Shown here: one piece after another, positions 1 through 5,605 of the stretch
Layout of the letters: each line of letters begins with the position of its first letter
Numbering within the stretch: the stretch's first letter is position 1
Source of the DNA: a virus
DNA: 5,605 bases
Direction: 5' to 3' (one strand)
IMG/VR virus record: IMGVR_UViG_3300011730_000006
Span: 1-5,605 of that record
Notes under the pieces: model-generated
The model's database searches: none
Told to the model about the DNA's origin: nothing
What the model saw: the letters and a program-made list of their open reading frames with translations, nothing else
Program-made: the position numbers and the translations under genes

Positions 1-69
1 AATTTAAATGCACTACTTCAAAAAGATAGTTTTGTTATTGATGACAATTCTTTTCAGCTTCAAAAGTAG
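1..69 (+). CDS. 3' fragment (redundant copy) of the g5p-like ssDNA-binding protein gene at 5300-5551
   Basis: In frame from base 1 it reads NLNALLQKDSFVIDDNSFQLQK then stop. This is the same sequence as 5483-5551. Confidence 0.9.
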   Translation, partial: NLNALLQKDSFVIDDNSFQLQK

Positions 70-123
70 GTTTTAAAAAATGGCATATGTCTGTGAAGTT
101 TTAGACGCTGCACAAGCCTGTGT
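1..123. repeat. Terminal overlap (left copy) from reading past the circular junction
   Basis: By eye, the 123-nt string aatttaaatgcactacttc...cacaagcctgtgt is identical to 5483-5605. Confidence 0.95.
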
Positions 124-265
124 CCAATGGGTTGAACAGGTAACTCTACTTGAGCAACTCGCAATAACTAAAACGCAGATGGCACAACTGGGGGCACCAA
201 TTATTGGTATTTACGGCTTAATCATCGCGTTTGCAATGTTCAATAACTTTTCTAAGAGGGCATGA
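80..265 (+). CDS. Small membrane protein, candidate minor coat protein (g7p/g9p-position analogue), 61 aa
   Basis: It lies between the ssDNA-binding gene and the major coat gene. The C-terminal hydrophobic segment APIIGIYGLIIAFAMF is followed by a basic tail SKRA. Its TGA stop overlaps the ATG at 262 (ATGA), suggesting translational coupling. No clear SD site is visible. Confidence 0.5.
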   Translation: MAYVCEVLDAAQACVQWVEQVTLLEQLAITKTQMAQLGAPIIGIYGLIIAFAMFNNFSKRA

Positions 266-267
266 AA

Positions 268-525
268 ATGTCAAATCAACTAGCTGTACAAGAAAAACGT
301 GGTGTTTTAACTCTGCGTAATGTTTCAACTTATGGTCTTGGTGCAACAATCGGCGGTGCTATGGCCCTTGCACCTGCTGCTAATGCTGAATCTGTTCTCG
401 ATTTCGCCGGTGCATCAGGTGAATTAGACGGTGTTAAAACTGCTGTTGTCGGAATTATCGGCACGTTAGTTGTTCTTATCGGCATAGGTATTGCCTGGTC
501 TTACTTTAAACGTACTGCCAAGTAA
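268..525 (+). CDS. Major coat protein (g8p-like) precursor
   Basis: The leader ends in an AxA cleavage motif (APAANA/ES). The predicted mature peptide of about 45 aa has an acidic N-terminus (E,D,E,D), a hydrophobic core AVVGIIGTLVVLIGIGIAW and a basic C-terminus SYFKRTAK, the classic inovirus coat architecture. The SD site GAGG at 256-259 is well spaced for ATG 268. The ORF-track ATG at 262 is only 2 nt from it. Confidence 0.85.
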   Translation: MSNQLAVQEKRGVLTLRNVSTYGLGATIGGAMALAPAANAESVLDFAGASGELDGVKTAVVGIIGTLVVLIGIGIAWSYFKRTAK

Positions 526-532
526 TGCAGAT

Positions 533-561
533 AAATGCCTCCGCTTGGGGGCATTTTTATT
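533..561 (+). terminator. Rho-independent terminator downstream of the major coat gene
   Basis: A 10-bp stem aaatgcctcc / gggggcattt (one G-U pair) has a GCTT loop at 543-546 and is followed by ttTTaTT. The same placement is known for the strong terminator after gVIII in Ff phages. Confidence 0.8.
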
Positions 562-571
562 GGGGTGAAAT

Positions 572-652
572 ATGGAAGAAGCATCAATCTTATACTGGAT
601 TCCGTTGGTGGTTACATGGGTCGCATTACATCTTTTAGCAAGCAAGTTGTAA
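572..652 (+). CDS. Hypothetical 26-aa hydrophobic peptide MEEASILYWIPLVVTWVALHLLASKL (not in ORF track)
   Basis: ATG 572 is preceded by GGGGTG at 562-567. It has one predicted transmembrane (TM) segment and a size comparable to Ff g7p/g9p (32-33 aa). It overlaps the start of the g3p-like gene in another frame. This is speculative. Confidence 0.25.
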   Translation: MEEASILYWIPLVVTWVALHLLASKL

Positions 653-1911
653 AAGTTCTAATCTGCTTTTGTCTTGTTTACATACCTTTTTTTGCGAATG
701 CTGCAAGTCTTGGCGGTTGGTCTCTTGGTTCTCCAGTAGCTTCCGGCGCTTCCGCAATCGTCAATGGAACAAAAGAAATCATTTTGAATGGTGCATCTAA
801 AATTGCAAAAGGCACTGCAAAAATAACACCGAATGCTTCACAAGTTGCAAATGTACTTAAACGTGGTGCAGCCGGTTATGCGCTTTCTGTCGCTGTAGAA
901 CAGCTTTTGGGTGCAGTCGATTGGGTTTTAGATCCGGCGAATAATCAGATTGTTTATACAAAGCCTTCTGATTTACCAGCGCCTAATGGCGCTTTCGTCT
1001 GGATTTGGGCGGGCTGCTCAAGTTATCAAGCATGTACGGTCGAGGGTATTATAGGTTCTACACCACAGGCTGCTTGTCAAAAATGGGCTGATGCACGTCA
1101 ACCCCTCACTGTATCTAGAACTATTTCAATGTCAGAAATTCGAGCTAGATGTATCTTTAGTGATAATACACAGCAAGATGTACAACGTGTTGCAAACCCT
1201 GCTTATGATCCGGACGCAGAAGATCAGAAGAAAACATTACCGCTTGAAACTGTAGCTCAAAAAGTAATTTCGAATGCTGCCGGCGGTGATGTATCAGCAC
1301 AACAAGCAATTACTGCTGCTGCACAAGATGTAATTAATGAAGCAGAAAATGACAGTGTTAAAGCTGCTCCAATTGTTCAGCAGCTAGAAGCATCAAAAGC
1401 AATTGAAGCTGAAAATACGGCAACTGGTGAACAGACACAAAACCCTGATAAACCCAATGTCACAAACATAAAGTTAGAATTTCCAGCTTTCTGCGGCTGG
1501 GCACCGCTTGTCTGCGAAGCTGCACAAACTGTAATTTCATTTCCGATTACTCTGACGAGTTGGTGGAATACAGTAAATCAATGGTGGCTTACACTTAATG
1601 AAAAAGCTGATCGATGGGCACGATCTATTAGTGAAGCTTGGTCTGAATTTAATGACACACCACCAAAAAATGAAGATACAGAACTCGAAATCGAACAGCC
1701 TGAAATTGAAGTAGATACAGACATAAATTTCGGCGGTGCTTGTCCATCTCCTCTTTCAACATCGTTCTCCATGTTTGGAAGCACACATACTATGGAATTT
1801 TCATTCGATCCAGTTTGTGAAATTGCTTCTTTTATAAAACCCGTTGTTGTTTCTATTTCTGCATTTAGTGCTGCACTCATTATTGGTGGCATCAGAACGG
1901 AGGATGACTAA
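616..1911 (+). CDS. Adsorption/minor coat protein (g3p-like), 431 aa from ATG 616
   Basis: It is the large gene immediately after the major coat gene. From ATG 616 (SD site GGTGG at 606-610) there is a signal peptide MGRITSFSKQVVKVLICFCLVYIPFFANA/AS. It has Cys-containing N- and C-terminal domains joined by an Ala/Gln/Glu-rich linker. The C-terminal hydrophobic anchor VVVSISAFSAALIIGGI is followed by RTEDD. The ORF-track start at 535 lies inside the terminator stem. Confidence 0.7.
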   Translation: MGRITSFSKQVVKVLICFCLVYIPFFANAASLGGWSLGSPVASGASAIVNGTKEIILNGASKIAKGTAKITPNASQVANVLKRGAAGYALSVAVEQLLGAVDWVLDPANNQIVYTKPSDLPAPNGAFVWIWAGCSSYQACTVEGIIGSTPQAACQKWADARQPLTVSRTISMSEIRARCIFSDNTQQDVQRVANPAYDPDAEDQKKTLPLETVAQKVISNAAGGDVSAQQAITAAAQDVINEAENDSVKAAPIVQQLEASKAIEAENTATGEQTQNPDKPNVTNIKLEFPAFCGWAPLVCEAAQTVISFPITLTSWWNTVNQWWLTLNEKADRWARSISEAWSEFNDTPPKNEDTELEIEQPEIEVDTDINFGGACPSPLSTSFSMFGSTHTMEFSFDPVCEIASFIKPVVVSISAFSAALIIGGIRTEDD

Positions 1912-2189
1912 TGTGGTCAAAACTTGCTGATCTTTTTACGTCACTTCAAAAGGGTACTTTAAAAAATGTTCTTACTGGTGCCGGCTTAATGCTAGGTACT
2001 AACGCTATATTTTTAACGACGTTTTCTGCTGCTGTGAATGCATTAAAAAACTCTGTTAATTCAGTTTCAGTCGATGTTCTATCGCTTGCTCATATAGCAG
2101 GTTTCGACATAGCTATGTCACTCATCTTGGGTGCAATTGTCACCCGACTAACCATGAATTCTTCAAAATTGGTATTAAGAAAACAGTAG
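1911..2189 (+). CDS. Small hydrophobic minor coat protein (g6p-like), 92 aa
   Basis: It follows the g3p-like gene with a TAATG overlap. A strong SD site GGAGGA at 1899-1904 sits 6 nt upstream. Several hydrophobic segments are present (GAGLMLGTNAIFLTTFSAAV, IAGFDIAMSLILGAIV). The assignment is positional. Confidence 0.6.
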   Translation: MWSKLADLFTSLQKGTLKNVLTGAGLMLGTNAIFLTTFSAAVNALKNSVNSVSVDVLSLAHIAGFDIAMSLILGAIVTRLTMNSSKLVLRKQ

Positions 2190-2257
2190 CGACCAAAAGA
2201 CATCCGCGTCCGCTATCCCGTCGGCTCGCGCGGGTGCGGAGCGGTGTCTAGGGTCGC
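2189..2257 (+). other. GC-rich long imperfect hairpin (candidate packaging signal, minus-strand origin or attachment sequence)
   Basis: Hand-folded pairs are gcgacc(2189-2194)/ggtcgc(2252-2257), agaca(2198-2202)/tgtct(2245-2249), ccgc(2204-2207)/gcgg(2241-2244), ccgc(2210-2213)/gcgg(2236-2239) and cccg(2217-2220)/cggg(2231-2234). GC content is far above that of the neighbouring genes. Confidence 0.6.
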
Positions 2258-2273
2258 GATAGGGTAAAAAATT

Positions 2274-3713
2274 ATGTTGCATTTTATTACTGGTACACCT
2301 GGTGCGGGTAAAACTCTTTACGCTGTATCTTTAATTGTTAAATATGAAAATGAAAATGATAGGGCATTAATATATAACGCTGCTGCTATTAAACATAATC
2401 AAGAAATTATTGAGAAAAATAAACTACAGTCTTATTTTCTTTTATATACATATTTCAGTAAAAAGACTAAAAAACAAGAAACTGTTTTATTCGAACCTGA
2501 TCATTTTAATTATTTAACTGAGCAGAAAAGAACAGATAATATTTTTCTTGATATTCAGTTTTATAATGGTATCTGTAAATCTATTAAAAATGATTTAGAT
2601 ATTGATTTAAAACATTTAAAAGATGTACGTCATATATATGCCAATATTGATGGTTTAAAAGTACCTAATGTTAAACCTGCTGAAATTGATTGGCGTAAAT
2701 GTCCTGATGGTTCTATTATTTTCTATGATGAGATTCAGTTAATTCCTGAATATTCTACTGATAATAAGCAGGACAGAGAAAATATAATAAAAGAATTAAC
2801 TATTCATCGTCATCGAGCTTTTGATATATATGGAATCACTCAGTTTCCTTCCTTGGTTAATACAAATTATCGTGCTGTTGTCGGTTTACATTATCACTTG
2901 CATCGTGGCTGGGGTGCGCCTTCCGCAACAGTTTACGTTTGGGCAAATTGTCGAGATAAGCCTAATAGTCTGGGTAATAAGCTTACTGCTGAACGTGATT
3001 TTCGATTTAATTATCCTAAAAAGTTGTATCAATACTACGAATCAGCTACTGCAAATACCGTTAAGTTGCGCGTACCTCTTAAATTATTCGCAATCCTTCT
3101 TATTCCAGTGGTCGGACTTGTTATGGTTGGTAATATGCTTTTTGGTGGCGGTAATAACTTTTTCGGTACAATTTTTGGAACAAAAGAAAAAACAGCGGAA
3201 GTAAAAAAAGAAACTTCCAATGTACCTACGGAAGTGAAAAAAGAAACTTCCAATCCTGATCTACTTGCTAACTCTCTCTCAGATCTATCACAAGAATGTC
3301 GAAAGGCTATCAATTTAGAAAAGCCTGAGTGTGTTAAATGGTTTAATGATTTAACTGCTACTAATGCATCAGTTTCAAAAAATGGTGTTGTAACAGTTTC
3401 ATATAACCCTGATCGTCCTTATGACTTTCATCCAGAGCCACAAGTACAAGTTCGTGACTATCCACGTTTAACCGGATGCGCACAATTTAATGGTACTTAT
3501 CGTGCTTATGATCAGCAGGGAAATGTTATGCCTAACATCTCACAAAGTGATTGTAAGCGCTGGATGAACGGTGAAAGAACGTTTGATTATACTAGAGCGC
3601 CTATTCAAGTTAGTGCACAACCTCAACAGCCTAAGCAAGAACAACAGACTACTAAATATGATGCTGAGTTCTTAGCTAAATATCAGCAAGCTAAAGCAGA
3701 GGGCTTGATATGA
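2274..3713 (+). CDS. Zot/pI-family phage assembly ATPase, 479 aa
   Basis: It has an N-terminal Walker A motif GTPGAGKT and a Walker B motif IIFYDE. The NIDGL motif and HRHRAFDI are typical of the Zot N-terminal domain. A single TM segment LFAILLIPVVGLVMVGNMLFGG is followed by a periplasmic C-terminal domain of about 185 aa. Its position after the g6p-like gene fits inovirus gene order. Confidence 0.92.
   Translation: MLHFITGTPGAGKTLYAVSLIVKYENENDRALIYNAAAIKHNQEIIEKNKLQSYFLLYTYFSKKTKKQETVLFEPDHFNYLTEQKRTDNIFLDIQFYNGICKSIKNDLDIDLKHLKDVRHIYANIDGLKVPNVKPAEIDWRKCPDGSIIFYDEIQLIPEYSTDNKQDRENIIKELTIHRHRAFDIYGITQFPSLVNTNYRAVVGLHYHLHRGWGAPSATVYVWANCRDKPNSLGNKLTAERDFRFNYPKKLYQYYESATANTVKLRVPLKLFAILLIPVVGLVMVGNMLFGGGNNFFGTIFGTKEKTAEVKKETSNVPTEVKKETSNPDLLANSLSDLSQECRKAINLEKPECVKWFNDLTATNASVSKNGVVTVSYNPDRPYDFHPEPQVQVRDYPRLTGCAQFNGTYRAYDQQGNVMPNISQSDCKRWMNGERTFDYTRAPIQVSAQPQQPKQEQQTTKYDAEFLAKYQQAKAEGLI
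3198..3254 (+). repeat. Tandem direct repeat with 33-nt period inside the Zot-like gene (EVKKETSN twice)
   Basis: gaagtaaaaaaagaaacttccaat (3198-3221) and gaagtgaaaaaagaaacttccaat (3231-3254) differ at 1 of 24 positions. They lie just after the TM segment. Confidence 0.9.
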
Positions 3714-3726
3714 ATTACAGAATTTC

Positions 3727-3740
3727 TTTTCCTTGATTAC
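3727..3740 (+). other. Degenerate second copy of the origin nick motif (ttttcCTTGATTac)
   Basis: It shares tttt(c)cttgat with the main motif at 3871-3881, in the same orientation, 143 nt upstream. Confidence 0.4.
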
Positions 3741-3771
3741 TTACCTTAATTTACTTCTAATATTAATTTAC

Positions 3772-3846
3772 AAAATTTTCGTTCAGGGGAATTCGAGACG
3801 GGTGAGTGCGCGAACCTGCGAGAAGGCGTAGTCTACGAAAAATTTT
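3772..3846 (+). other. GC-rich structured element closed by an A/T stem (candidate single-strand origin or packaging signal)
   Basis: aaaattttcgt (3772-3782) pairs with acgaaaaatttt (3835-3846) with one bulge. The enclosed approximately 52 nt is GC-rich (gagacgggtgagtgcgcgaacctgcgagaaggcg) within an AT-rich intergenic region. Confidence 0.5.
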
Positions 3847-3867
3847 CCGTGGTTTTTGCTTCTAGAA

Positions 3868-3893
3868 TCCTTTTCTTGATAATTAAGGGATAA
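3868..3893 (+). other. Putative double-strand origin (dso) nick region, pC194/phiX174-like: tccttttCTTG/ATAattaagggataa
   Basis: It contains the CTTGATA core (3875-3881) flanked by a T-rich tract and AAGGG. As I recall it, this closely matches the pC194 origin (tcttatCTTGATAataagggtaac) and the phiX174 nick site (aCTTG/ATA). It is on the same strand as the genes and directly upstream of a Rep_1-type rep gene. Confidence 0.65.
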
Positions 3894-3948
3894 TTCCACG
3901 TTATTAAAATATGTTGTATTATATGTGTGGCAAGGGTTTCGGGCTTGT

Positions 3949-3977
3949 TTGCAAGATCAAAAAAAATCCCGTATTAT
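3949..3977 (+). promoter_or_regulatory. Sigma70-like promoter for rep: TTGCAA - 17 nt - TATTAT
   Basis: The -35 element TTGCAA is at 3949-3954 and the -10 element TATTAT at 3972-3977, with an exact 17-nt spacer. It lies 17-38 nt upstream of the candidate rep ATGs. Confidence 0.5.
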
Positions 3978-4014
3978 TCAAAGTGCTTACTCAATGAATA
4001 TATCCGGGATTTGT

Positions 4015-4998
4015 ATGTCAAATATAACAGATTTGACTGCACTGCCCAAGTTTTTTCTTGTTGACTACTCCAAAGATGACAATATCTGGGATAAACAACG
4101 GGCGACAGCTCAGGCCGTGCAGGAGATTTATCATAAGACTAGCTTCGATGCTTATCAATTTGGTTATCTTACTTTCTTTAAATATGCTCAGCGTATAGAA
4201 AAATGTTCTAATATTCTCAAATTCGGTTTTACTGATGATGAGAAATTGAAGCTTAAGCAGACTTTTTTTTGCCGTGTTCGCTATTGTCCTGTCTGCCAAT
4301 GGCGCAGATCTATGATGTGGCGTGCTCGCTTTTTTCAGATGATGCCTGAGTTACAACAGAACTATCCTACTCATCGTTGGGTATTTTTAACATTAACAGT
4401 TAAGAACTGTGATATTTCCGAACTTAGGCTAAATTTATCTAGAATGTCTAAAGCCTGGAACAAGTTTATTAAATATAAAAAACTTTCTGCTATAGATGGT
4501 TGGGTTCGTACCACTGAAGTTACTCGTTCTAAGGATGGTTCTGCTCATCCACATTTTCATTGCTTACTTATGGTAAAACCCAGTTTTTTTTCTGGTAAAA
4601 GCTATGTTAAGAACTCTGAATTTCGCGAATTATGGGCTAAAGCTTTAGAAGTTGATTATTTACCTATTACTCATGTTAAAGCTGTTAAGGGTGATTCTCC
4701 AGATAAGGCTGTTCTTGAAACTTTGAAATATAGTACTAAGCCTGATGATTTTTTTGACGATCATGATTGGTTTCGTCAGCTCACTCAGCAAACTCATAAG
4801 CTTCGTTTTGTTGCTACTGGTGGAATTCTTAAAGGTTGTCTTAAGAATGAAGATGATATAACTAATGAGGATATGATTAATACTGAAGGTGAAACTGAGG
4901 ATGATACAGATAAAAGACGCCTTGCATTTTTTTATAATGATGATTTAAGACGTTATCATCGTGCTCCAAATTATGATGAAAATATAGATGATGATTAA
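4015..4998 (+). CDS. rep: Rolling-circle replication initiator, Rep_1 (pC194/pUB110) family HUH endonuclease
   Basis: The conserved motifs appear in order: the Cys cluster CRVRYCPVCQWRR, motif 1 FLTLTV, the HUH motif HPHFHCLL (4546-4560 encodes HPHFH), and the catalytic Tyr motif LETLKYSTK (Tyr codon 4729-4731). The start is uncertain. ATG 4015 has a weak GGGA SD site, ATG 3994 is also possible, and the track's GTG at 3925 overlaps the predicted promoter. Confidence 0.9.
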   Translation: MSNITDLTALPKFFLVDYSKDDNIWDKQRATAQAVQEIYHKTSFDAYQFGYLTFFKYAQRIEKCSNILKFGFTDDEKLKLKQTFFCRVRYCPVCQWRRSMMWRARFFQMMPELQQNYPTHRWVFLTLTVKNCDISELRLNLSRMSKAWNKFIKYKKLSAIDGWVRTTEVTRSKDGSAHPHFHCLLMVKPSFFSGKSYVKNSEFRELWAKALEVDYLPITHVKAVKGDSPDKAVLETLKYSTKPDDFFDDHDWFRQLTQQTHKLRFVATGGILKGCLKNEDDITNEDMINTEGETEDDTDKRRLAFFYNDDLRRYHRAPNYDENIDDD

Positions 4999-5018
4999 AG
5001 GGGCTTTAGCCCCTTTTT
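4997..5018. terminator. Bidirectional rho-independent terminator between convergent rep and the minus-strand regulator gene
   Basis: aaaGGGGC-ttta-GCCCCttttt forms a 5-bp G/C stem (5000-5004 with 5009-5013) flanked by an A-run and a T-run. It is therefore functional in both orientations. Confidence 0.8.
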
Positions 5019-5181
5019 AATTTTCAAATAAACTTTGTTGTTTTTCTCTTTTTAACTGCTCTGATAAAAATAATCTAAACATTTTATTTAATTCTCTATT
5101 ACTACGTAATTGTAGTAATTGTTCTGCTTCTTTTGGATATGATTTGGGATCGATTTTAATATTTGCTTGAATATATCTCAT
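5017..5181 (-). CDS. 54-aa putative transcriptional regulator, RHH-like (not in ORF track)
   Basis: The hand translation is MRYIQANIKIDPKSYPKEAEQLLQLRSNRELNKMFRLFLSEQLKREKQQSLFEN. The SD site GAGGG (plus-strand 5189-5193) is 7 nt upstream of the ATG (5181-5179). The pattern of a short N-terminal beta-strand (YIQANIKI), helix, turn (RSN) and helix fits the RHH fold. It is the only minus-strand gene and is divergent from the ssDNA-binding/structural operon, like the repressors of temperate inoviruses. Confidence 0.55.
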   Translation of the reverse strand: MRYIQANIKIDPKSYPKEAEQLLQLRSNRELNKMFRLFLSEQLKREKQQSLFEN

Positions 5182-5203
5182 TACTTTGCCCTCATATAAT
5201 AGC

Positions 5204-5263
5204 TTTCTATTCTATTATATTAACAACCTCTTTTAAACAAAAATAAATTAAATAGAATAGAAA
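5204..5263. promoter_or_regulatory. Divergent control region with a 13-bp perfect inverted repeat (putative operators)
   Basis: tttctattctatt (5204-5216) and aatagaatagaaa (5251-5263) are exact reverse complements. Each arm contains a tandem pentamer (TCTAT x2). A minus-strand TATAAT (plus-strand 5214-5219) overlaps the left arm. The region lies between the divergent regulator gene and the ssDNA-binding gene. Confidence 0.55.
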
Positions 5264-5299
5264 ATATAACAAAGCAGTAATATTAAATGAGGAATCTGC

Positions 5300-5551
5300 A
5301 TGTCTATTCACGAAATTCGAGTACCATTAAATAATGTAGTTATTAAGACTAAAAATAATAAATCGGGTAATCCTTTTTATTATTTTGAAGTGTTAGAACC
5401 GCAATGGAAATTTTTACAAGTTAATAATAATCCTCGTGTTGAATCTCTCCTAGCTGAGTTTGCTAAAACTCAGCAGCCAATTAATTTAAATGCACTACTT
5501 CAAAAAGATAGTTTTGTTATTGATGACAATTCTTTTCAGCTTCAAAAGTAG
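5300..5551 (+). CDS. ssDNA-binding protein (g5p-like), 83 aa
   Basis: The SD site GAGGA (5289-5293) is 6 nt upstream. Its size and its position at the head of the structural operon match g5p (87 aa in Ff). The N-terminal pattern MSIHEIRVP...KNNKSGNPFYYFE is reminiscent of Ff g5p MIKVEIKPS...SRQGKPYSLNE. This is a positional and weak-motif assignment. Confidence 0.55.
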   Translation: MSIHEIRVPLNNVVIKTKNNKSGNPFYYFEVLEPQWKFLQVNNNPRVESLLAEFAKTQQPINLNALLQKDSFVIDDNSFQLQK

Positions 5552-5605
5552 GTTTTAAAAAATGGCATATGTCTGTGAAGTTTTAGACGCTGCACAAGCC
5601 TGTGT
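5483..5605. repeat. Terminal overlap (right copy), identical to 1-123
   Basis: Direct comparison with bases 1-123. The offset is 5482 nt. Confidence 0.95.
5562..5605 (+). CDS. 5' fragment (redundant copy) of the 61-aa membrane protein gene at 80-265
   Basis: It is identical to 80-123 because of the terminal overlap. Confidence 0.5.
   Translation, partial: MAYVCEVLDAAQAC

Follow-up and report, generated by a model that had tools for sequence, protein, structure and literature searches.

A conserved 54-residue protein and a co-varying TCTAT motif as a candidate repressor-operator cassette in a circular inovirus genome

We analysed a 5,605-nucleotide (nt) stretch of viral DNA, positions 1 to 5,605 of the IMG/VR record IMGVR_UViG_3300011730_000006 (hereafter the window, meaning this whole stretch), which is a circular inovirus genome of ~5.48 kb with bases 1-125 repeated at 5481-5605 and with the plus-strand gene order of a filamentous phage. 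We found that a minus-strand open reading frame (ORF) of 54 amino acids (aa), convergent with rep and divergent from the virion operon, is a real gene under purifying selection, and that a tandem TCTAT motif near its start co-varies with the protein. The reading that we favour, and regard as probable rather than certain, is that this protein would be a small dimeric repressor of the ribbon-helix-helix type that acts on the TCTAT repeats, regulates its own synthesis, throttles the virion operon, and forms an exchangeable cassette together with its operators.

The 54-aa gene lies at 5017-5181 on the minus strand (ATG 5181..5179, TAA 5019..5017) and is preceded by the Shine-Dalgarno sequence GAGGG at 5189-5193 (read 5193..5189) with a spacing of 7 nt to the ATG. 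Both the ORF and this ribosome-binding site had been proposed in a first-pass annotation of the DNA, and both are borne out by the sequence and its relatives. A word-indexed homologue search returned two sequences, an exhaustive profile search added four more, and a profile of 11 sequences retrieved 17 cluster representatives, the longest contig for any of which was 5,963 bp; all recovered contigs were 0.6-6 kb in length. Syntenic homologues were identified in 10 other lineages of ~5-kb Rep_1-type inoviruses, and each locus that spanned both flanks carried a minus-strand ORF of 51-58 aa between rep and the divergent 83-aa gene, with an SD-like GAGG, GGGG or GGAG at the equivalent place before the start in all lineages. 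Scans of IMG/VR and JGI metagenomes with Rep, the 83-aa protein, the regulator alignment and the 83-aa alignment yielded no further loci. Selection was then measured pairwise by Nei-Gojobori counts. Lineages L001 and L004 differed at 20 synonymous and 11 non-synonymous positions, giving a ratio of non-synonymous to synonymous substitution (dN/dS) of 0.05, and the remaining pairs gave 0.14-0.6 (overall range 0.05-0.6); between the window and L001 the proportion of synonymous differences (pS) was saturated at 0.88, with a non-synonymous proportion (pN) of 0.22. The idea that 5017-5181 is a spurious ORF was rejected on the basis of this conservation and these ratios.

The 54-aa ORF is separated from the divergent 83-aa gene by an intergenic region of 118 nt (5182-5299), and this arrangement is kept in the relatives. 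In the window the region carries a perfect inverted repeat of 13 bp with 34 nt between its arms, which extends to 16 matches of 18 over 5204-5221 / 5246-5263. The left arm (5204-5216, TTTCTATTCTATT), which we propose as the operator O_L, contains the 12-mer TTTCTATTCTAT at 5204-5215, made of two TCTAT units, and the right arm (5251-5263, AATAGAATAGAAA), the proposed operator O_R, is its exact inverted copy with a plus-strand TAGAAT at 5253-5258 inside. When the 118-nt region was shuffled 5000 times with its dinucleotides preserved, just 4 shuffles reached a perfect inverted repeat of this length, and no other copy of the repeat pattern with fewer than two mismatches was found elsewhere in the genome. 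On the minus strand, two overlapping -10-like hexamers of the putative regulator promoter occupy 5209-5219, namely TAGAAT (5214..5209), which lies inside the left arm and has TTTAAA (5237..5232) 17 nt upstream, and TATAAT (5219..5214). The divergent region, the 13-bp repeat and the TATAAT overlapping the left arm are thus all present as the first-pass annotation had described them. The regulator sense strand over the left motif reads TAGAAT-AGAAA, that is, a -10 hexamer followed by a start region. On the plus strand, the sequence and the alignment with relatives offer an alternative -10, TATAAC, at 5265-5270 just downstream of the right arm. Judging from the geometry, the two putative outward promoters have weak -35-like hexamers that would overlap on opposite strands around the dyad centre at 5233/5234 (5230-5237).

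We compared the intergenic regions across eleven lineages. TTTCTATTCTAT was invariant in six of them (the window, L001, L003, L004, L005 and L012), besides the near-identical L002, and was cut down to one unit in L006, although the mean column identity of the surrounding intergenic DNA was only 56% in the alignment. The left motif was positioned 18-27 nt from the regulator ATG in most lineages, with a conserved position of its -10-like hexamer. TCTAT itself was enriched, with 3-4 copies in each intergenic region where 0.6-1.3 would be expected (p = 0.003-0.03 per locus), and in L001, L003 and L005 extra copies lay directly upstream of the rightward -10. Moreover, a plus-strand -10-like hexamer was found at a nearly constant distance from the left hexamer in the ten aligned lineages (38 nt in seven, 39 in two and 41 in one), and no other offset within 15-69 nt was shared by more than two lineages. 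These mirrored hexamers at a fixed offset of 38-41 nt suggest that the region consists of two putative back-to-back promoters with fixed geometry. Since the left motif keeps its 12 bp unchanged while the rightward -10 varies (TAGAAT, TATAAT, TAAAAT, TACAAT), a constraint beyond sigma-70 appears to act on the left motif.

An inverted repeat better than chance was absent from the intergenic regions of the relatives, except for L010, which carries a perfect 12-bp inverted repeat (TTTGTATTGTAT / ATACAATACAAA), a length reached in 16 of 2000 shuffles, with a 36-nt spacer, exactly as between the 12-mer cores of the window (5204-5215 / 5252-5263). The mirrored inverted-repeat arrangement arose twice, independently, in the window and in L010. 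The earlier suggestion of paired operators therefore stands in part: the left tandem unit and the mirrored -10-like hexamer are conserved, and the perfect repeat is confined to these two genomes.

The motif was then set against the residues at positions 7 and 9 of the protein. All seven lineages with N7/K9 contained TCTAT and lacked TGTAT, whereas the three lineages with H/S (L009, L010 and L011) contained TGTCT or TGTAT units and lacked TCTAT, with TTTGTCTTGTAT or TTTGTATTGTAT at the position of the left motif. The C-to-G change hits both units, and in L010 all four. L012 and L010 have 83-aa proteins that are 76% identical, and their regulators are only 48% identical and their motifs different; conversely, the regulators of the window and L012 are 71% identical and their motif is the same, while their 83-aa proteins are just 41% identical. 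As judged from these sequence comparisons, the motif follows the regulator and not the neighbouring operon, and the genomes of L012, L010 and the window are mosaic. The best reading of this pattern is that the regulator and its putative operators would constitute an exchangeable specificity cassette of an immunity-like kind.

On the other side of the gene, a GC-stem hairpin with a flanking A-run and T-run occupies 4997-5016 on both strands, in the gap at which rep (stop codon 4996-4998) and the small ORF (stop codon 5017-5019) converge. The T-run is short on the minus strand (TTTAAT), and an equivalent A-run/GC-stem/T-run hairpin was present in 10 of 10 lineages examined; it is probably a bidirectional terminator, and the hairpin that the first-pass annotation had assigned jointly to rep and the small ORF is thus conserved. 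No toxin-type partner gene was found downstream of the regulator, where the hairpin abuts the stop codon, and 10 of 11 lineages lacked a partner gene. In the remaining lineage, a 188-aa ORF (L011:1248-1814) overlaps the regulator stop and extends the regulator operon; it matched phrog_12600 (E = 5.6e-68) and had no match in Pfam or PADLOC, and it looks like cargo inserted into the regulator transcript.

The same observations bear on a different explanation, in which the protein is real and does not bind this DNA. TTTCTATTCTAT would then be a -10 element plus the initial-transcribed region, the inverted repeat would be two promoter cores, and the protein would have another target, for instance Rep, the 83-aa protein or something in the host, or would serve in exclusion or like an antitoxin. 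The motif does read as TAGAAT (TACAAT in L010) on the regulator sense strand 18-27 nt from the ATG, and promoter geometry alone explains much of the symmetry because all lineages carry the mirrored -10-like hexamer at 38-41 nt. This explanation also agrees with library searches in which no DNA-binding family was detectable, and with L011, where the 188-aa gene follows the small gene in the same operon. We nevertheless consider it unlikely. Promoter function does not account for a left 12-mer that is invariant well past a hexamer while the rightward -10 varies, or for the additional TCTAT copies outside the hexamer. The coordinated C-to-G change in every unit matches the change from N/K to H/S on the predicted recognition strand, and it falls on the -10 position that is least constrained in sigma-70 promoters. 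The terminator directly after the stop and the lack of a partner gene in 10 of 11 lineages weigh against it as well.

We also considered whether the inverted repeat could work as a hairpin of the single-stranded DNA (ssDNA), either as a promoter-mimicking minus-strand origin as in Ff or as a packaging signal, instead of as a protein operator. In Ff phages, RNA polymerase recognises a promoter-like hairpin as the minus-strand origin. As ssDNA, 5190-5280 folds with the 13-bp stem (-7.8 kcal/mol, z = -2.6), and both arms contain -10-like hexamers. The stem is AT-only and weak with a loop of 34 nt, and the structure is missing in most relatives, whose longest inverted repeats are at chance level, whereas an essential origin should be conserved. 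A far stronger GC-rich hairpin exists at 2189-2257, with GC-rich structured counterparts in several relatives, and we judge the ssDNA reading of the inverted repeat very improbable. This other hairpin, an imperfect one on the plus strand between the DUF2523 (pVI-like) and Zot genes, had a folding energy of -25.5 kcal/mol as ssDNA (z = -4.84), and equal stability was reached in 0 of 200 shuffles. The matching gap has 54-58% G+C in L005, L010, L011 and L012 and folds strongly in the first two of these, making 2189-2257 a candidate packaging signal or minus-strand origin. The TCTAT motif was also rejected as a replication origin because TTCTTGATA, which resembles a pC194-type nick site, lies upstream of rep. 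This 9-mer is located at 3879-3887 in the window, with an identical copy upstream of rep at L005:56-64; it resembles the CTTGATA nick site of pC194/phiX174-type Rep proteins, and is the likely plus-strand origin.

Returning to the repressor reading, we asked what fold the 54-aa protein is predicted to adopt. The AlphaFold2 models, which are monomer predictions only, reached a mean predicted local distance difference test (pLDDT) score of 72.6 with three sequences, and of 90.7 with an alignment of 18 sequences, for which the predicted template modelling score (pTM) was 0.63. In the latter model, residues 1-15 are non-helical, extended and confidently placed, and are followed by a helix (16-27), a three-residue turn and a second helix (31-53). 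Ribbon-helix-helix proteins have a strand-helix-helix order over ~45 residues and an alternation of polar and hydrophobic residues along the strand, and the predicted monomer shows both this order and this alternation. The ribbon-helix-helix protein is an obligate homodimer whose two strands pair as an antiparallel ribbon, and the topology of the model is compatible with a single subunit of such a dimer, its strand left unpaired. The best conserved segment of the family is the N-terminal x-[IV]-Q-[AV]-[NH]-[IL]-[KS]-[IV]-D, and within the strand I4-Q5-A6-N7-I8-K9-I10 hydrophobic and polar residues alternate so that Q5, N7 and K9 lie on one face. Ribbon-helix-helix proteins have a G-x-S/T/N turn between the helices, and the N-terminus of helix B contacts a phosphate; in this family, S/N and basic residues are kept across the inter-helix turn. 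A helix-turn-helix fold was not indicated, with just two helices predicted and no family match in Pfam-type scans. The sole good structural neighbour was a 60-aa viral protein in BFVD (template modelling score 0.90, 35% identity), which is probably a member of the same family. A weak match to PfiT in the PDB search (E = 0.58) disappeared with the larger profile and was dropped.

Several observations weigh against the repressor reading. The 54-aa protein family had no match in Pfam, PHROGs, NCBIfam or PADLOC, and the ribbon-helix-helix families of Pfam and NCBIfam gave none for any of the 11 or 18 members scanned at E values up to 10. PDB sequence and profile searches with the family returned chance matches only and nothing relevant, and Foldseek against the PDB found no match for either model, a 54-residue monomer with an unpaired strand being a weak query. 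In hhalign comparisons with ribbon-helix-helix sequences, run together with decoys, the probability stayed below 4% and did not rise above that of the decoys. The turn between the helices is R26-S27-N28-R29, and its usual glycine is found in no family member. The ribbon-helix-helix fold put forward in the first-pass annotation is therefore upheld as far as the predicted monomer topology goes, and no link to a known member emerged from sequence, profile or Foldseek searches. As to the DNA, TTTCTATTCTAT contains a -10 hexamer, so that its conservation may partly reflect promoter function alone, and the -35 elements of both putative promoters are weak. The arm centres are 48 bp apart, or ~4.6 helical turns, which is unfavourable for looping. 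The regulator gene adjoins the motif, so that their co-variation could be linkage, and this co-variation amounts to about two or three independent events.

From the sequences we infer that the protein dimerises, binds DNA and represses, and which of the hexamers serve as promoters, and a mechanism can be proposed for the repressor on this basis. The N-terminal strand (I4-Q5-A6-N7-I8-K9-I10) would pair with its counterpart in another subunit and insert into the major groove, with the paired ribbon over TAGAATAGA. The tandem TCTAT-TCTAT (ATAGAATAGA on the opposite strand) would be read through Q5, N7 and K9. The left unit coincides in part with the -10 and start region of the leftward promoter, from which the regulator itself would be transcribed, so that a dimer bound there would lead to negative autoregulation. 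In the window, the inverted copy lies 36 nt further on and coincides with the -10 and start of the rightward promoter, and a dimer would bind there as well. This promoter would drive the 83-aa gene together with the coat and assembly genes, and binding of the mirrored copy would thus lower the virion output. RNA polymerase would probably be unable to sit on both promoters together, since their -10 hexamers face outward, back to back, 38 bp apart. With the arm centres ~4.6 helical turns apart, the two arms are expected to be occupied independently rather than looped.

The genes around this module follow the filamentous-phage order. The 83-aa gene (5300-5551, plus strand) is the first of the divergent virion operon and stands at the gene-V position, a putative function, with no match in Pfam. 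It is followed on the plus strand by a 61-aa gene, a coat-like gene, a gene for a 458-aa adsorption-like protein (phrog_7568), DUF2523 (pVI-like), Zot/pI, and then rep at 3925-4998, whose product is Pfam Rep_1 (PF01446; E = 1.6e-81). The 83-aa proteins fall into several sharply distinct types with 31-50% identity between types, L010 and L012 sharing one type. Rep is 65-94% identical throughout the L012, L010 and window loci, and the regulator type assorts independently of both the Rep and the 83-aa type. GCAG (5274-5277) and CTGC (5295-5298) flank the ribosome-binding site of the 83-aa gene, a bracket also seen in L003, L005 and L013, and they may form a small leader hairpin that affects translation of this gene. 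Directly after the coat-like gene (ATGCCTCCGCTTGGGGGCATTTTTATT), an imperfect GC hairpin at 535-560 is followed by TTTTTATT and overlaps the listed start of the 458-aa ORF; it recalls the attenuator behind the major coat gene of Ff phages. The rep ORF as listed starts with GTG at 3925 and encodes 357 aa, compared with 319-338 aa for the Rep of relatives. An alternative start, ATG at 4015 (MSNITDL...), gives 327 aa and is probably the true one, and a promoter-like TTGCAA-17-TATTAT at 3949-3977 is a candidate rep promoter.

No close relative of the genome or of the 54-aa protein was found among GenBank phages, and a GenBank phage search with P0013 gave chance-level matches only; an Rfam search was negative. 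The nearest Rep was that of Clostridium phage CAK1 (31% identity). The 458-aa adsorption-like protein was 29% identical to orf3 of Acinetobacter phage M02, and a Rep fragment with 46% identity was found in a Psychrobacter cibarius assembly, and from these two similarities the host is probably a member of the Moraxellaceae, such as Acinetobacter or Psychrobacter.

The position of the small gene relative to rep bears on the two functions first suggested for the module, a CopG-like copy-number control as in pMV158 and a true lysogeny repressor. In some rolling-circle plasmids rep is controlled by small ribbon-helix-helix repressors. A related precedent exists in the episomal filamentous phage PMBT54, in which ORF13 is annotated as an omega-like ribbon-helix-helix protein with a suggested role in copy control (PMC10534721). 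Moreover, the window has no strong plus-strand terminator between the assembly genes and rep, so that partial read-through into rep from the regulated promoter is possible. The small gene, though, lies downstream of rep and convergent with it, not upstream; neither rep nor the candidate promoter at 3949-3977 has a TCTAT tandem nearby, and beyond 5204-5263 the genome has no copy of the repeat with fewer than three mismatches; and Rep belongs to Rep_1, which we take to be the pC194/pUB110 family. The RepB of pMV158 belongs to another Pfam family. As for lysogeny, no integrase was identified among the window ORFs by the ORF list or a Pfam scan, the one match to the dif pattern had three mismatches and was at chance level, the assembly is circular, and the contigs of the homologues are all below 6 kb, with no family member in a larger, chromosome-size contig. 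Neither copy control nor lysogeny is supported by these results, and we regard a module of either kind as improbable. For the module, a switch of production or immunity in an episomal phage is the more fitting description.

We offer a further account tentatively and believe it less than the repressor itself; in it, operator and -10 hexamer may be one and the same DNA. The repressor would read ATAGAATAGA, with TAGAAT as the -10, and would compete directly with sigma-70 at two mirror-image and mutually exclusive promoters. A change from G to C at the one -10 position tolerated by sigma-70, together with N to H and K to S on the strand of the protein, may reset the specificity. The result may be heteroimmune classes of non-integrating inoviruses, with the regulator-operator cassette shuffled between backbones.

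Taken together, the module is most likely a phage switch of a familiar type whose protein belongs to a family not classified before. It adds to the inovirus regulators a small protein family of ~18 cluster representatives with no match in Pfam, PHROGs, NCBIfam or the PDB, and provides a compact, directly testable model for the way in which virion production may be restrained in a non-integrating filamentous phage of 5.5 kb. Two naturally matched pairs, TCTAT/N-K and TGTAT/H-S, offer a ready specificity swap for DNA recognition by a beta-strand and hint at immunity groups; together with the mirrored design of promoter and operator, they most deserve testing. Small divergent repressors that regulate themselves are a well-known principle, so that the result is a refinement of what is known and not a break with it.

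Among known regulators, Arc of phage P22, with 53 aa, is similar in size to the present protein and shares its predicted strand-helix-helix order. In Arc, the strand residues Gln9/Asn11/Arg13 read a TAGA box (PMC12645479), and Q5/N7/K9 are in the register of these residues. Moreover, the TAGA boxes of the Arc target overlap promoter elements (PMC12645479), and TAGA occurs twice in the unit described here. Unlike Arc, the present protein has no inter-helix glycine, has a longer second helix (23 residues) and shows no sequence or profile similarity to it; the TAGA copies here are direct repeats with a 5-bp period in sites 48 bp apart, whereas the 21-bp operator of Arc consists of two half-sites that abut. 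A second comparison is omega/ParB of pSM19035, a ribbon-helix-helix protein that recognises short non-palindromic units in direct or inverted orientation (PMC9499535). The TCTAT units are likewise short and non-palindromic, and they occur in direct and in inverted orientation. They differ in being 5 bp instead of 7 bp and in occurring as 2-4 units instead of long contiguous arrays, and the present protein has neither sequence similarity to omega nor a partition ATPase beside it.

Similarly, CopG of pMV158 is a small protein from a rolling-circle replicon, and the ribbon-helix-helix fold proposed here would be a further likeness. CopG is co-transcribed with rep and represses the promoter that they share; here, by contrast, rep and the small gene converge, the surroundings of rep contain no operator-like repeat, and the Rep is of the Rep_1 family.

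The last comparison is with the divergent repressor modules of other filamentous phages. RstR is a helix-turn-helix protein, and the RstR/ig-2 of CTXphi exists as exchangeable immunity types. In CTXphi, two promoters share a 138-bp region with three RstR sites and RstR represses its own gene too, while FpsR of SW1 is a helix-turn-helix protein of the Cro/cI type that did not bind its own promoter (PMC4762005). The fold predicted here is not a helix-turn-helix, and no sign of integration was seen; the divergent partner of RstR and FpsR is a replication gene that heads the operon, whereas here it is the 83-aa gene, with rep convergent. Like CTXphi RstR/ig-2 and SW1 FpsR, the window has a lone reverse-oriented gene, here of a putative repressor, with a compact region shared with the main operon, and its cassette-like mosaicism resembles that of the CTXphi RstR/ig-2 types.

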